DNA of 64,000 bases from Chitinophaga pinensis (GTDB taxonomy: Bacteria; Bacteroidota; Bacteroidia; NS11-12g; UBA955): positions 19,489-83,488 of the forward strand of contig CAMDAF010000006.1 of the NCBI GenBank assembly GCA_945888525.1. Direction: 5' to 3'. The position numbers and the translations under genes were made by a program. Below are positions 6,636-50,280 of this stretch, in pieces. Under the pieces are notes generated by a model. The model did no database searches and was not told where the DNA came from. It saw only the letters and a list, made by a program, of their open reading frames with translations. Positions within the stretch are counted from its first letter, which is position 1. Each line of letters opens with the position of its first letter.

Positions 6636-7388
6636 TCAAAATAAGGGTATAAAATCCTCCGGCTTCAAGCTCTTATGGTAATGGTGTATAAAATCAGGTT
6701 CCTTTCTGCGGATGCACCCAACGCCATTTTTGTAGTATTCAAAAAACAAAAGCCAATCTTCTTTACCCCAATCTGTGATGCTTTCGTCGTAGCCCCCAAG
6801 ATCTAAAAACTGCTGGCGTTGGCTTGCCATAATACCAGTTCCCTCAGACATAAAATGACCGGTGCCATCTTGGTGGGTAAACCAAATTTGCGGAAACCAA
6901 GCTGAATATTTTCCGCTGTAACGGTTTACTTTTTCAAGTACATCTATAGGCACTGACATATCGGCATCGCAGACCAAGATTAAATTATTGCTAGCCTGTT
7001 TTACCGCTGCATTAAAACTGATGCTGCGCGCAAAATTTTGAGGCACTTCAGCATAAACCAATTTACCTTTCCATGCCTTGCGAATTTCTTGAACTAAATT
7101 TTGCACATCATCGCTGCCGCAGTCGAATACTGAGAGTTCTATGCAATCTAAATTTGCGCAGGCATTTAAAGACGGAATGAGATGGCTTAGCAAATTATGG
7201 CTGCGGTTTTTTATTCCAACGCAAACACTAATGGCTTGTAAATTATTTGGCCTTTTTCTGGTGGCATACCAAGCTTTAAAGTCGCTTAATACCGACGAAA
7301 ACCCAACCCATTTTCTTTGTGGTGATTTGAATACAAACCACAAAAATTGTTTGAAGGGTTTCGGCAATAAACGCTTTAAAAAACTCAT
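6636..7388 (-). CDS. Glycosyltransferase family 2 (GT-A fold)
   Basis: A DxD-like CDADM motif and a WGKEDW motif recall the WGGEDDD of galactosyltransferase-type GT2 C-terminal domains. A 4-nt overlap with xth suggests translational coupling. Confidence 0.6.
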   Translation of the reverse strand: MSFLKRLLPKPFKQFLWFVFKSPQRKWVGFSSVLSDFKAWYATRKRPNNLQAISVCVGIKNRSHNLLSHLIPSLNACANLDCIELSVFDCGSDDVQNLVQEIRKAWKGKLVYAEVPQNFARSISFNAAVKQASNNLILVCDADMSVPIDVLEKVNRYSGKYSAWFPQIWFTHQDGTGHFMSEGTGIMASQRQQFLDLGGYDESITDWGKEDWLLFFEYYKNGVGCIRRKEPDFIHHYHKSLKPEDFIPLF

Positions 7389-44525: not shown

Positions 44526-47500
44526 ATGTCAACAAAGCAAAACAGCAGCGACAAAACCATCAGCAACAGCGCCAATACCGCAGTGTATATCAGCCAATCA
44601 AATGGCAATAAACAAGCAGAAAAAGACTTATTGGAATTGGCTGAAATATGTTTCAAATCTAACAATCCATTCACTTTATTTGCCTCAGAAAAATTAAAAT
44701 CAAATTCCATTTCTGATCTTCTAAAAGACAGTAAGATAAAAACCATCAATCCAAATGGTTTTGGCGAGGACATAAAAAATATTCTGACCCTACAATTGCC
44801 TTTGAGCAATAGAGCAGATGCAATTTTAAAGTGGACACAGAATGCCAATAAGGCTTTCAATGGCAAGAACATGGTTGCTGCCATAGGACGCAATTCAGAT
44901 AAATCAAATTTCTACGACAAGCATTTGGCGTATTGGAGCAACTTTTGGCCAAAGTTTTTTACAGGGGCTAACAGCAACTTATCTTCTTGTGAAGCGGTAT
45001 TGCTTTCTGAAGATGACTTCAAGTATTTGGTTCTTGAAAAAAAAATAGACAGCGCATGGCAATTGGCTGCCCTTGGCGAAAAAGAAGGCATTTGTACCAA
45101 GGTTCCATTTGAGTACAAAGCCAGCGATTTTAAACTTGGAGACGCTAGCAAATCATTCGCCCGCGGACTTGTTGATGGCATTAAAACTTTAATCAATTAT
45201 TTCTTCAAAGCGGTCAACCCTGGCGACCAAATTACCGACAAGAGTAATATTAACCATAGTTTATACAAAAAAATATTTGGCTTTTCGGCCGTGTTTTTAC
45301 TCATTGGCATGCTTAGTATAAGCAACGATTACAACGTTACCTGGGACGAACCCAACCATAATAACTACTCGCAAGATGTCTTGGACTATTACACCAGCAT
45401 GGGTGAAGACACCAGTATGTTCGACTTCCAAGCCGAAGGCCACCGCGACAACTTTACCAACGTCTTGTATGGCATGGGCATTGACGTTTTGGCCTCAGGT
45501 GTAAACAGAATTATTGGCACCAATGAAACTGCAGTGCCCAAAGACATTATCGCCATTACATTTACTGGCAACATTGTCGATTCTCTATTCAACAACCAAT
45601 ACAAACGCTATCCTGTCGATGAAAGTGGCTTTATTGAGCACCGCACTTTGGGTAAAATAAATGTAGCAGGAAAAACTTTGCCTGAAATCAAATCCGTGTT
45701 GAAAGATAAACTAAACGAAGGCTCAGTGAACGCCTCAGTGAGTGTTGGTTTCAGCAGTTTCAAAGCCCACCACGCCGAATTTGTAACCAGGCACATATTA
45801 AACACGATTACTGGTTTCCTAGCCATTTTATTTGCTTCTCTTTTAGTCAGAATGCTGTCTGGTTGGTTGCCTGCCATCATCACACTTATCGCATTGGTTT
45901 GCTCTCCTTCTTTCTTCGGCCAATGTTTTAACAACCCTAAGGACATTCCTTTTGCAGCTGGCTACATCATGTCTTTATATTACCTGGTTCGCTTGTTAAA
46001 GGAATTGCCTTCTGCGCGGCACCAAACCAAGGTAATGCTTGCCTTGGCCATCGGATTTACCATTAGTATCCGTGTTCAAGGGGTCTTGCCACTCGGATTT
46101 TTATTGATGTTTATGGGCTTGCATTGGCTGTTAAACTACGCCAACAAAAAAGACAATAAATTCTTAGTATACGTGAAACACGGTTTATTAATCGGCATCG
46201 TCGCTTACATACTTGGAATTTTATTCTGGCCTTATGCCTTAAGAAATCCTATAGACGGAACACTTAAAGCCCTAACTGAGTTTGACAAATTCTCATACCT
46301 TACCTATTACGAATTGTTTGATGGGGTGCGTTTGTTCGACAAACCATGGTATTACGAGCCAAAATTAATTATGCTTACAGCGCCATTGGCAGTATTGGCT
46401 GGTTTATTACCCGGCGTGCTCTTGGGCTGGAAAAACAACAAAACACAAAGGTTAATGATAGGATTGGTCTTATTGGCCACCTTCTTTCCTTCGGCTTACA
46501 TCATTTATAAAAAATCATACGTATACAACGGTTGGAGACATTTCATATTCATATATCCATCCTTAGTGGCCATCGCTATTTTAGGTTGGCATTGGTTGGC
46601 AGGATTATTTAAGAACGCTAAAATCAAAATGGGACTAATGCTAATCATTGGCCTGACGTTTATTAAGCCTGGTATTTGGAGCATAGTCAACCACCCATAC
46701 CAATACATTTACTTCAATGAAATTGCAGGGGGTGTTGAAGCGGCAAATGGCAAATACGAACTCGACTATTGGAACCAAACCCCGAGAGCTGCGTTTAAAT
46801 GGTTGATTGAAAACCATCCTGAAGTGCTTAAAGGCGACATCAAAGTAAGCAGCAACAACATACAAGAAGCGCTTAAAACCTTTGTTCCAGAAGGCAAAGA
46901 CGTTAAATATGCTTGGACCCGCGAATACGAATGGGCCGACAACAATTGGACCTATGCCATTTGGACCACCAGAACACTTTCTAAAAACCAAATTTTGAAT
47001 GGATACTGGCCGCCTAAAGGCACCATTCATGAAATTAAAGTTGACGGTGTGACAATTGCCGCCGTAGTTCGATCGAACAGCAATTACAGCTATCTAGGCA
47101 AACAATGTTTAAAGAAAAACAATGGTGATTCTGCACTTTGGTATTATGAGCAAGCTTATGCATTCAATCCTTTGGAAGAGGAATATGCAAGGGGTGTTGC
47201 TGACGCTTGTAAAATGAAAATGAGATTGGATTCCGCCGTTATGTTCTATAAAAAAGCCATTGAATTGAGGGATGGAAATTACGAAGCTTACCAGAACTTA
47301 GGCGAAGTATACTACACCCAAGCCTTAATGGCAGACCAAAACAATCCGAATGCTAAAATGCTTGAACTGGCATTTGAAACGTTGGCATTGGCCTTTAAAC
47401 ACAAAAAAAATGCCTCGGCACCTTTGTTGATGGGTGAAATTAGGCTTCAACAAAAAAATGCTCTAGAAGCAAAAATGTATTTCAACCTCTTCAATCAAGC

Positions 47501-47726
47501 CTATGGCAATGTTGGCAGAGGCTATTTAGGTCTTGGTAAAGCAGAGTTGATTTTAGGGGAACAAGATTCGGCTTTTTACAATTTGCAGGCGGCCATTCAA
47601 TTAGACCCTCGAAGTGCAGAAGCGTACTATATTATTGGAACAGAATTACAAAAAACTGGCCGTGAAAAAGAAGCGGAACAGTTTTTGAATGAGTATATGA
47701 AATTAACCGGAATGCCTCAACAATAG
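44526..47726 (+). CDS. Chimeric membrane protein: Wza/Poly_export-like periplasmic module, GT-C (PMT/ArnT-like) polytopic glycosyltransferase core, and C-terminal TPR repeats
   Basis: Residues about 330-410 (YKRYPVDESGFIEHRTLGKINVAGKTLPEIKSVLKDKL...ASVSV) resemble a polysaccharide-export domain. Residues about 420-760 form a multi-TM GT39/GT83-like segment. Residues about 860-1066 are TPR-like (AYQNLGEVYY..., AYYIIGTELQKTG). Confidence 0.5.
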   Translation: MSTKQNSSDKTISNSANTAVYISQSNGNKQAEKDLLELAEICFKSNNPFTLFASEKLKSNSISDLLKDSKIKTINPNGFGEDIKNILTLQLPLSNRADAILKWTQNANKAFNGKNMVAAIGRNSDKSNFYDKHLAYWSNFWPKFFTGANSNLSSCEAVLLSEDDFKYLVLEKKIDSAWQLAALGEKEGICTKVPFEYKASDFKLGDASKSFARGLVDGIKTLINYFFKAVNPGDQITDKSNINHSLYKKIFGFSAVFLLIGMLSISNDYNVTWDEPNHNNYSQDVLDYYTSMGEDTSMFDFQAEGHRDNFTNVLYGMGIDVLASGVNRIIGTNETAVPKDIIAITFTGNIVDSLFNNQYKRYPVDESGFIEHRTLGKINVAGKTLPEIKSVLKDKLNEGSVNASVSVGFSSFKAHHAEFVTRHILNTITGFLAILFASLLVRMLSGWLPAIITLIALVCSPSFFGQCFNNPKDIPFAAGYIMSLYYLVRLLKELPSARHQTKVMLALAIGFTISIRVQGVLPLGFLLMFMGLHWLLNYANKKDNKFLVYVKHGLLIGIVAYILGILFWPYALRNPIDGTLKALTEFDKFSYLTYYELFDGVRLFDKPWYYEPKLIMLTAPLAVLAGLLPGVLLGWKNNKTQRLMIGLVLLATFFPSAYIIYKKSYVYNGWRHFIFIYPSLVAIAILGWHWLAGLFKNAKIKMGLMLIIGLTFIKPGIWSIVNHPYQYIYFNEIAGGVEAANGKYELDYWNQTPRAAFKWLIENHPEVLKGDIKVSSNNIQEALKTFVPEGKDVKYAWTREYEWADNNWTYAIWTTRTLSKNQILNGYWPPKGTIHEIKVDGVTIAAVVRSNSNYSYLGKQCLKKNNGDSALWYYEQAYAFNPLEEEYARGVADACKMKMRLDSAVMFYKKAIELRDGNYEAYQNLGEVYYTQALMADQNNPNAKMLELAFETLALAFKHKKNASAPLLMGEIRLQQKNALEAKMYFNLFNQAYGNVGRGYLGLGKAELILGEQDSAFYNLQAAIQLDPRSAEAYYIIGTELQKTGREKEAEQFLNEYMKLTGMPQQ

Positions 47727-47772: not shown

Positions 47773-50280
47773 ATGAAAAAAATAGTCCTTGCCATATTGC
47801 TTGCAGGACTGATGCAAAAAGCCTCAGCAACCCATATTGTGGGCGGTGAGGTAATGTACCAATATCTAAGCACTTCCAATGGCTTAAAGAACTATAGGGT
47901 TACCATGTACCTTTACATCGATTGTATAAATGGTGCCGCTGGCGCAATTTCTAGCGACAATGAAGCCCTTTTCAATGTATTTAAAACAAGTAACCAAGCA
48001 CTTCAAACCAATTTGTGTAAAACAGTGGTGCGAACAGGCCCCGTCACCGTTAGCGATTTAAATTACAAATGCATTAAAAACAAACCCAGTGCGTGTGTAG
48101 ACAAATACACCTACGTAACGACAATGAGTTTACCAGCCAACACCCGTTATTTAATTACATTCGAACGTTGCTGCAGAAACAAAACCATCAATAATATTGT
48201 AGATGCTGAAAATACTGGCGCGACTTATTTCACTGAAATCAATACCGCACTTAACAACAGTTCTCCTTTTTTCAAATCATTGCCACCAAACTTCCTTTGC
48301 ACCAATGCACCGTTGAAATTTGACCACAGTGCTATGGATGCAGACGGCGATTCATTGGTGTACGAACTGTTTCAACCTTTTGATGGTGCCGGAACATCGA
48401 CAAACACGGCGTCAAGACCTGATTATTCAGACCCAGGCAACTTGCCTCACTATCCAAGCAATTTGGTGCTTTGGAACCCCGGCTACAACACCTATTTCAA
48501 CCAAATCGATGGCAGTCCAACTTTAACCATCGACCGCAAAACAGGTAAACTTACATTGACGCCAACACAGCCAAATCAATATGTTATTGGAATCAAAGTT
48601 AAAGAATATAGAAAGGGCGTTTTAATCGGTGAGACCAAACGCGACTTCCAATTCAATGTTGCAGATTGTAATTTTGATGTGGTATCGTCTTTCTTTGTCC
48701 CGCAAAAAAATTGTGTAGGCAATCCCATTACCTTCACCAATAGAAGCCAAGGTGGTATTCGTTACTCTTGGAATTTTGGCGACACGAGCACACTAGCAGA
48801 TACCTCTAATCTAAAAAATCCTGCCTATACCTACAAAAACCCAGGAAACTACACCATCACTTTAGTTACCAGCAGCTCGGTATGTATTGATACCAGCGAT
48901 TACGAGATAACAGTTATTCCTAAATTTGTGGTTAAGCTTCCCCAAGACACCTTGGTGTGCGGAAACTTTAGCAAACTGCTTTATTCCAATATTACCAATA
49001 CAACTGGAAAAACTTTCCAATGGAGCACAGGTCAAAATTCAAAAACCATTACAGTCAATAAAGCTGGCTTGTATTGGCTTTCGGTAAGCGAAGCACCTTG
49101 TACTTCTGGCGATTCAATTTTCATTACCAACGATTTAGAAAAAATTAATTTAGGCCCCGACTCGGTCATCTGTCGCGATAGCTTTGTTCGATTTACCTAT
49201 CCTGGTAAGCCAGGATACAAAACCTATTTATGGAACGATGGCAGTATAAAAGATTCTGTATTTATCACTAAACTCGGAACCTATTGGGTAAATATCACCA
49301 ATAAAAACGATTGCCCATCAACAGATACTATAACTTTTGTTTTATACCCTCCGCCACTCATAAGACTTTACGACACTCTATTCTGCAAGGGCACTTCAGT
49401 GGTTTTAGATGGCGTTAATTATTCTGTTAAAACCAAGCTAGAAACCAATTATCTCTGGAACACAGGAGACACCAGTTCCAAAATCACGACGTTTATACCT
49501 GGAACCTATATAATAAAAGTAAGGAACCGACTTTGCACAGTGTTTGATACAGCTGTATTAATCCATATTCAAACAGGTTTGGATTTAGGCGTCGACACTT
49601 TTTACTGTGGACCAGTTGACCGTTGGCTATACCCTCAAAAAGGTTTTGTAAAATACCAGTGGCACGACTTTGCCGAAACCATTAATTACCGTGCAACAAC
49701 GCCAGGAAAGAAAAAACTAACCATTACCACCAAAGAAGGCTGTATAGAATCCGATTCAGTATTGATTACACAATTTCCTGTAAGAGATGGTGGTTTGGGC
49801 AAGGACACTGCCATCTGTTTGTCATCCTCTTTAAGCCTTACCGCTGCTGACAGCATGATCAATTACCTGTGGAACACGGGAGAAACAACCCGTAAAATCC
49901 GTATCAGCTCAGGTGGTACTTACACTGTTACCTTTAAATATGGCATCGGTTGCATCAATGCCGACAGCATTAAAATTTCAGAAGCTGGCGATGCCTTGCC
50001 AAATGAGATGTTTATGCCAAATGCTTTTTCACCTAACGACGACAACATGAATGAAGTATACCCTGGCAACAAATACGCTGATCCAGGTTCCGCTTATATG
50101 CTAAGAATATACAACCGTTGGGGCGAAAAAATATTTGAAAGCAATACCCCTCAGATTGCTTGGGATGGTAAATACAAAGAGGAAGAAGTGCCTCAAGACG
50201 TGTATGTATTTTATGTTAAGTACGTCGGTTGCGACGACAAAGAGCGCTGGTTCAGAGGCACCGTCAGCCTTCTAAGATAA
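47773..50280 (+). CDS. Secreted adhesin-like protein with PKD-like repeats and T9SS type-B (gliding-motility-associated, CHU_C) C-terminal domain
   Basis: It has a signal peptide. The C-terminus is MPNAFSPNDDNMNEVY...LRIYNRWGEKIFES...AWDGKYKEEEVPQDVYVFYVKY...GTVSLLR. Confidence 0.7.
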   Translation: MKKIVLAILLAGLMQKASATHIVGGEVMYQYLSTSNGLKNYRVTMYLYIDCINGAAGAISSDNEALFNVFKTSNQALQTNLCKTVVRTGPVTVSDLNYKCIKNKPSACVDKYTYVTTMSLPANTRYLITFERCCRNKTINNIVDAENTGATYFTEINTALNNSSPFFKSLPPNFLCTNAPLKFDHSAMDADGDSLVYELFQPFDGAGTSTNTASRPDYSDPGNLPHYPSNLVLWNPGYNTYFNQIDGSPTLTIDRKTGKLTLTPTQPNQYVIGIKVKEYRKGVLIGETKRDFQFNVADCNFDVVSSFFVPQKNCVGNPITFTNRSQGGIRYSWNFGDTSTLADTSNLKNPAYTYKNPGNYTITLVTSSSVCIDTSDYEITVIPKFVVKLPQDTLVCGNFSKLLYSNITNTTGKTFQWSTGQNSKTITVNKAGLYWLSVSEAPCTSGDSIFITNDLEKINLGPDSVICRDSFVRFTYPGKPGYKTYLWNDGSIKDSVFITKLGTYWVNITNKNDCPSTDTITFVLYPPPLIRLYDTLFCKGTSVVLDGVNYSVKTKLETNYLWNTGDTSSKITTFIPGTYIIKVRNRLCTVFDTAVLIHIQTGLDLGVDTFYCGPVDRWLYPQKGFVKYQWHDFAETINYRATTPGKKKLTITTKEGCIESDSVLITQFPVRDGGLGKDTAICLSSSLSLTAADSMINYLWNTGETTRKIRISSGGTYTVTFKYGIGCINADSIKISEAGDALPNEMFMPNAFSPNDDNMNEVYPGNKYADPGSAYMLRIYNRWGEKIFESNTPQIAWDGKYKEEEVPQDVYVFYVKYVGCDDKERWFRGTVSLLR

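Follow-up and report, generated by a model that had tools for sequence, protein, structure and literature searches.

The TMTC proteins, eukaryotic look-alikes of the protein studied here, glycosylate specific folded protein domains. Bacterial GT-C enzymes with periplasmic TPRs are, to our knowledge, widespread and almost entirely uncharacterised, and in the three-component Gtr/Arn systems that we know of the GT2 and the GT-C enzymes are separate proteins. TMTC1-4 are GT-C O-mannosyltransferases with C-terminal TPRs, and uncharacterised prokaryotic homologues that combine GT-C and TPR modules exist (PMC7801869). In Pseudomonas aeruginosa, pilin is glycosylated by TfpW, a GT-C arabinosyltransferase/oligosaccharyltransferase whose 11 TM helices are joined to periplasmic TPRs and whose gene adjoins the substrate gene (bioRxiv 10.1101/2020.04.19.049825). 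In GT-C enzymes the first extracytoplasmic loop carries conserved acidic residue(s) just after TM1 (PMC7801869, PMC11127046), for instance the pairs D55/E56 of ArnT and D77/E78 of Pmt1 (PMC7801869), and accessory extracytoplasmic domains are common among them (PMC11127046). What defines proteins of the OPX type is Poly_export at the N-terminus combined with at least one SLBB domain (PMC9603273).

Integrity and domain architecture of the ORF

The window, that is, the whole stretch of 64,000 nucleotides that was analysed, originates from an uncultured freshwater Bacteroidia bacterium, and the close relatives of the target protein all come from uncultured MAGs. The database annotation of the target reads only "TPR repeat protein". 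Its ORF is continuous over 1066 aa. The same length was found in 61 members of its 90% cluster, which derive from independent sources, and several independent MAG contigs encode the target at exactly this length. Since the length recurs in independent assemblies, the ORF is neither the product of a frameshift nor an assembly chimera, and an artefact joining two genes was ruled out. The single continuous chain assumed in the preliminary description of this DNA was thereby borne out. The features are listed in Table 1.

Table 1. Features of the target ORF and of the gene that follows it (positions in the window; aa, residues of the target protein unless a length is given).
Feature	Position	Strand	Remarks
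Complete ORF, 1066 aa, predicted multi-domain inner-membrane GT-C glycosyltransferase	44526..47726	+	
Cytoplasmic GT-A-fold domain, ArnC/GtrB/DPMS-like, aa ~16-228	44571..45209	+	Model and Foldseek; without canonical DxD
GT-C transmembrane core, 11 predicted TM helices, aa 245-721	45258..46688	+	Invariant N470, D473, R516, R671
TM1 of the GT-C module, aa 245-268	45258..45329	+	Hydropathy; helix 6-29 of the model
Acidic motif D-Y-N-V-T-W-D-E, aa 268-275, start of periplasmic loop 1	45327..45350	+	D274/E275, candidate catalytic pair
Wza-D1/Poly_export (PES)-like beta-alpha domain, aa 333-416	45522..45773	+	Inserted between loop-1 helices and TM2
Conserved periplasmic alpha/beta domain, aa 722-850	46689..47075	+	NHPY, FNE, YExDYW, WxREYEW and WPPKGTIH motifs
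Periplasmic TPR domain, aa ~853-1062	47082..47711	+	Pfam TPR matches
Secreted 835-aa protein, T9SS type-B cargo, candidate substrate/partner	47773..50280	+	46 nt downstream of target

From the N to the C terminus, the GT-A-like domain is followed by TM1 with the D274-E275 pair, the Poly_export insert, the rest of the GT-C core, the alpha/beta domain and the TPRs. Neither a signal peptide nor a lipobox could be read from the N-terminal sequence. Without a signal peptide, the N-terminal GT-A-like domain must be cytoplasmic and, with the 11 TM helices predicted from hydropathy and the structural model, loop 1, its insert, the alpha/beta domain and the TPRs are all placed in the periplasm. The TPR-rich C-terminal domain reported earlier was strongly confirmed at aa ~855-1060 by Pfam (TPR_11, E 1e-10; also TPR_17 and TPR_14), and consensus TPR proteins matched as well. 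For the alpha/beta domain no structural match was identified.

The membrane core is a distant relative of PMT/ArnT-type GT-C glycosyltransferases

The number of TM helices in the polytopic core lies within the range of 7-13 typical of the GT-C superfamily, and its predicted structure shows the GT-C fold, with ArnT among the best structural matches. The Pfam search detected Poly_export and the TPRs as expected from the preliminary description, and GT-C similarity was seen below threshold: PMT_2 (PF13231) reached 18.4 bits at aa 423-531 (E 0.0027), short of the gathering cut-off of 26.1. Whereas the target itself is sub-threshold, precomputed PF13231 matches are present in many homologues without the insert, which identifies the family as a distant relative of PMT_2 and GT39/GT83-like enzymes. 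The NCBIfam search returned TPR-type partial matches and no GT model, and TPR proteins dominated the comparison of a family profile with PDB sequences, which returned nothing on the core. The solved GT-C structures of ArnT, PMT, STT3-AglB and ALG12 are 8-12% identical to the target, with no family-level sequence match, and the target has neither the MIR domain of PMT nor the periplasmic domain of STT3. The PMT/ArnT (GT39/GT83) likeness proposed for this region is thus real at the level of the fold, while the core extends over aa ~245-721 and not over about 340 aa, and no GT model of Pfam or NCBIfam recognises it above threshold.

Residues D274, N470, D473, R516 and R671 were invariant in 72 sequences with identities down to 27%. 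D473 belongs to the motif NNPKDIPF, and R671 to the motif GWRH with which TM10 begins. The loop-1 acidic motif was present in 55 homologues, and position 275 was acidic in every homologue whose loop-1 motif was inspected. The pair D274-E275 follows TM1 by 6-7 residues, in the part of the first extracytoplasmic loop where GT-C enzymes carry their acidic residues, and its position matches that given for D55/E56 of ArnT and D77/E78 of Pmt1; the pair and the Arg before TM10 are located like the GT-C hallmarks described previously (PMC7801869). D274-E275 is therefore regarded as the candidate catalytic pair. These residues also bear on the idea that the protein is a non-catalytic membrane scaffold, in which both GT modules are inactive and the TPR and D1-like domains serve protein-protein contacts, e.g., in the handling of T9SS cargo. 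The loss of DxD in the GT-A-like domain and the sub-threshold PMT_2 similarity would fit such a pseudo-enzyme, which we nevertheless consider highly improbable because D274, the acidic residue 275, D473, R516 and R671 are invariant or nearly so across a family with identities as low as 27%. Retention of the GT-C hallmarks at this distance is the pattern expected for an active site under selection. We infer that the GT-C core is catalytically competent and uses a polyprenyl-phosphate-linked sugar as donor.

In its overall plan the target resembles the TMTCs: its N-terminus is cytoplasmic, the number of its TM helices is odd, loop 1 has an acidic pair right after TM1, TM10 is preceded by an Arg and, as is characteristic of GT105, the GT-C core is followed by C-terminal TPRs on the non-cytoplasmic side. 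It differs from them in its D-E motif (D-D in TMTC), and the TMTC-specific DUF1736 gave no Pfam match at E ≤ 1. Beyond the TMTC plan, the target possesses an additional cytoplasmic GT-A-like domain, the periplasmic alpha/beta domain and the D1-like insert. With TfpW, as far as its published description goes, it shares 11 TM helices and C-terminal periplasmic TPRs, whereas TfpW comprises only 646 aa and lacks both the GT-A-like domain and the Poly_export insert. The gene of TfpW adjoins that of its substrate pilin; the neighbour of the target gene encodes a T9SS cargo instead, which is a hypothetical substrate.

The N-terminal domain resembles polyprenyl-phosphate sugar synthases

The preliminary list of modules had missed an N-terminal GT-A-like domain of ~240 aa, which was recognised with the structural model (pLDDT 84.6) and Foldseek. 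The top 21 Foldseek matches were all ArnC, GtrB or DPMS (E 8e-8 to 5e-5), enzymes with which the domain shares the predicted GT-A fold. In contrast to these proteins it has no DxD, and searches with the single sequence and with a 16-sequence profile gave no GT2 match in Pfam and no sequence match in the PDB. Comparison by hhalign showed the domain to be collinear with the genuine GT2 domain of a distant homologue, P0059 (E 1.2e-4), in which a canonical GT2 domain with DxD is fused at the same position. In the target the DxD position reads Q90-L91-P92, and R96 stands where 35 of 42 relatives have D or E. Judged from the missing DxD alone, the GT-A-like domain is probably degenerate and non-catalytic. 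The strong conservation of its YWxNFWPKLFTG motif indicates that it nonetheless does something. The canonical GT2 domain fused in P0059 suggests an ancestral fusion of a donor synthase with a donor-using GT-C enzyme, of which the N-terminal domain of the target would be a relic, derived from a synthase of the ArnC/GtrB type.

A Poly_export domain has been inserted into the first periplasmic loop

The insert of ~83 aa lies inside the GT-C module, TM1 and D274-E275 being located upstream of it. Poly_export (PF02563) was matched with 35.8 bits, above the Pfam threshold of 28, and over 52 aa the insert shares 56% of its residues with a genuine protein of the Poly_export+SLBB type. The Poly_export-like region of the preliminary description is consequently a genuine domain, although it is not an export module preceding the core. 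The insert is missing from orthologues that have ~60-70% identity to the target in the regions common to both (~985 aa), and an HMM of the insert found no separate Poly_export gene near these insert-less loci. This argues for a lineage-specific domain insertion and against a fusion of two genes, and it shows that the core function is independent of the insert. Orthologues that split the protein into separate genes, another arrangement that had been considered, were ruled out in the same way: the relatives are simply without the insert. Within the window the target ORF was the sole match of the insert HMM, with no Poly_export paralogue, and the related loci likewise gave nothing else.

GT-C proteins bearing the insert were confined to two 50%-identity clusters among 1.84 billion representatives (two further hits, P0122 and P0125, were repeat-protein artefacts with BRCA2 and HEAT repeats), which agrees with the rarity attributed to this combination earlier. 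Our literature searches returned no paper describing a Poly_export domain within a GT-C enzyme, nor one describing this protein family. No foreign-DNA signature was detected in the insert (GC 0.413, compared with 0.403 for the gene). In a neighbour-joining tree of the core, calculated without bootstrap, eight of the nine insert-bearing sequences including the query grouped together and the ninth, P0027, was placed elsewhere. This topology is compatible both with one gain followed by losses and with a transfer by recombination. The source of the insert was probably an OPX gene, and the insertion took place within a narrow freshwater lineage of the Bacteroidia.

It had been suggested that the protein couples lipid-linked glycosylation to surface-polymer export, in which case its Poly_export part would work as an export module of the Wza/KpsD kind. 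Despite the genuine Poly_export domain, we regard this coupling as extremely unlikely. The target shares with the OPX proteins Wza, KpsD and WzaB only the Poly_export/D1/PES domain; SLBB, SLBB_2, Wza_C and GfcC gave no Pfam match at E ≤ 1. One such domain within a loop does not make an OPX architecture when SLBB, Wza_C, a lipid anchor and a signal peptide are all missing. Moreover, the insert is anchored on either side by inner-membrane helices and so cannot reach or span the outer membrane, and the orthologues without it keep all other parts. Finally, the genomic association typical of OPX proteins (PCP/Wzc, Wzx/Wzy, ABC transporter) was not found among the window ORFs scanned. The target is not an exporter but a rare variant of a known enzyme type that carries an exporter-type domain in a periplasmic loop.

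Judged from its position in loop 1, the insert would adjoin the active site. By analogy with other GT-C enzymes it is most likely an accessory module that binds a glycan, the acceptor or another protein, in a role like that of the MIR domain in PMTs and of the CBMs in Emb/GT136 enzymes. One more specific version, which we hold to be highly improbable, is that the captured Wza-D1 domain retains its OPX role of touching the periplasmic apex of a Wzc-type co-polymerase and docks the target there, beside or instead of the exporter, so that nascent polymer or passing cargo could be modified. If true, a glycosyltransferase would here mimic an export-channel subunit in order to reach a secretion machine.

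The target gene is paired with a gene for a T9SS type-B cargo protein

The product of the downstream gene has a signal-peptide-like N-terminus as far as can be read from its sequence, a PKD domain (matched in Pfam), repeated W-x-T-G modules and a C-terminal T9SS type-B sorting domain (TIGR04131, 47.9 bits at a cut-off of 35; CHU_C in Pfam, E 2.5e-15). No terminator-like site was found in the 46-nt gap between both genes. At identities of at least 52%, the cargo gene lay directly 3' of the target gene in 18 of the 20 loci with a complete target; of the other two, L006 is at a contig end and L020 has too little downstream DNA. Conversely, the GT-C gene was located directly 5' of the cargo gene in all nine metagenome loci examined at the same minimum identity. 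The pair was kept in spite of differing flanks in L005, L018, L019 and L021. The pairing was limited to one lineage, as cargo homologues of ≤51% and GT-C homologues of <48% identity were unpaired, and it could for that reason be no more than inherited gene order. In addition, this genome is rich in T9SS cargo genes, five of which lie in the 64 kb. In some relatives (locus L004), two genes on the opposite strand, radical-SAM-like and YiiX-like by sequence reading, lie between ruvA and the target gene and look unrelated.

This neighbourhood has to be weighed against a glycan acceptor (LPS, capsule or exopolysaccharide), for which the GT-C part would belong to a three-component Gtr/Arn-like system of post-polymerisation modification and the insert would bind the polymer or dock to a Wzc-type co-polymerase. 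We consider such an acceptor rather unlikely, though deserving of attention, and the same doubt applies to a role of the TPRs as a periplasmic scaffold, as in BcsC, AlgK and PgaA. ArnT is among the best structural matches of the core, and the N-terminal domain comes closest to ArnC and GtrB, the enzymes that partner ArnT and GtrC. Poly_export/D1 is the part of OPX proteins that touches the PCP Wzc (PMC12819527), and glycan-modifying GT-C enzymes bear accessory carbohydrate-binding domains (PMC11127046). TPRs occur in polysaccharide secretion scaffolds too, which leaves room for a glycan. However, the Pfam scan of window ORFs brought up no gene for Wza, Wzc, Wzx or Wzy and no flippase or LPS gene; it covered part of the ORFs, and the others could still hold export genes. 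The search of the window for GT2 paralogues gave only a weak one at 6636-7388. The sole conserved neighbour of the target gene encodes a secreted protein, and an insert that is missing in most of the family cannot define the acceptor of the family. In addition, the Arg-Arg loop through which WzaB binds WzcB (PMC12819527) was not evident when the sequence of the insert was read.

Proposed function

Taken together, we are inclined to view the target as a TMTC/TfpW-like, periplasm-facing inner-membrane GT-C glycosyltransferase, with the insert as an accessory binding module and the T9SS cargo as the leading candidate acceptor, an assignment that we judge somewhat better than even. According to this proposal, the donor would be a polyprenyl-phosphate-linked sugar that is synthesised and flipped by other proteins and binds within the membrane core, the invariant R516 and R671 being candidates for contacting its phosphate. 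The acceptor would be activated by the D274-E275 pair that opens periplasmic loop 1 and may be chosen by the TPR domain together with the conserved alpha/beta domain. Most likely it is a folded protein, either periplasmic or secreted, the T9SS type-B protein encoded 46 nt downstream being the first candidate; the neighbouring gene would thus stand to the target as the pilin gene stands to TfpW. The Poly_export insert may bind the glycan, the acceptor or a partner, and would form no export channel.

Significance

The conservation of the T9SS type-B cargo gene beside the target gene suggests that enzyme and substrate form a dedicated pair in Bacteroidota. The whole family of ~985-1066 aa may be a glycosyltransferase dedicated to one T9SS type-B cargo, a less exotic possibility than docking to Wzc. 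If the target is an ordinary lineage-specific glycosyltransferase, the practical value of our analysis is a corrected annotation. The family also preserves what appears to be the fossil of a fusion between a GT2 donor synthase and a donor-using GT-C enzyme, active-looking in one distant member and degenerate in the target. Finally, orthologues of 60-70% identity in the shared regions that differ by one OPX D1 domain, probably beside the active site, provide a natural comparison with and without the insert. Such a pair could show how accessory domains retune the specificity of GT-C enzymes, and the isolated insert could reveal the binding partner of D1, the least understood domain of the OPX proteins.

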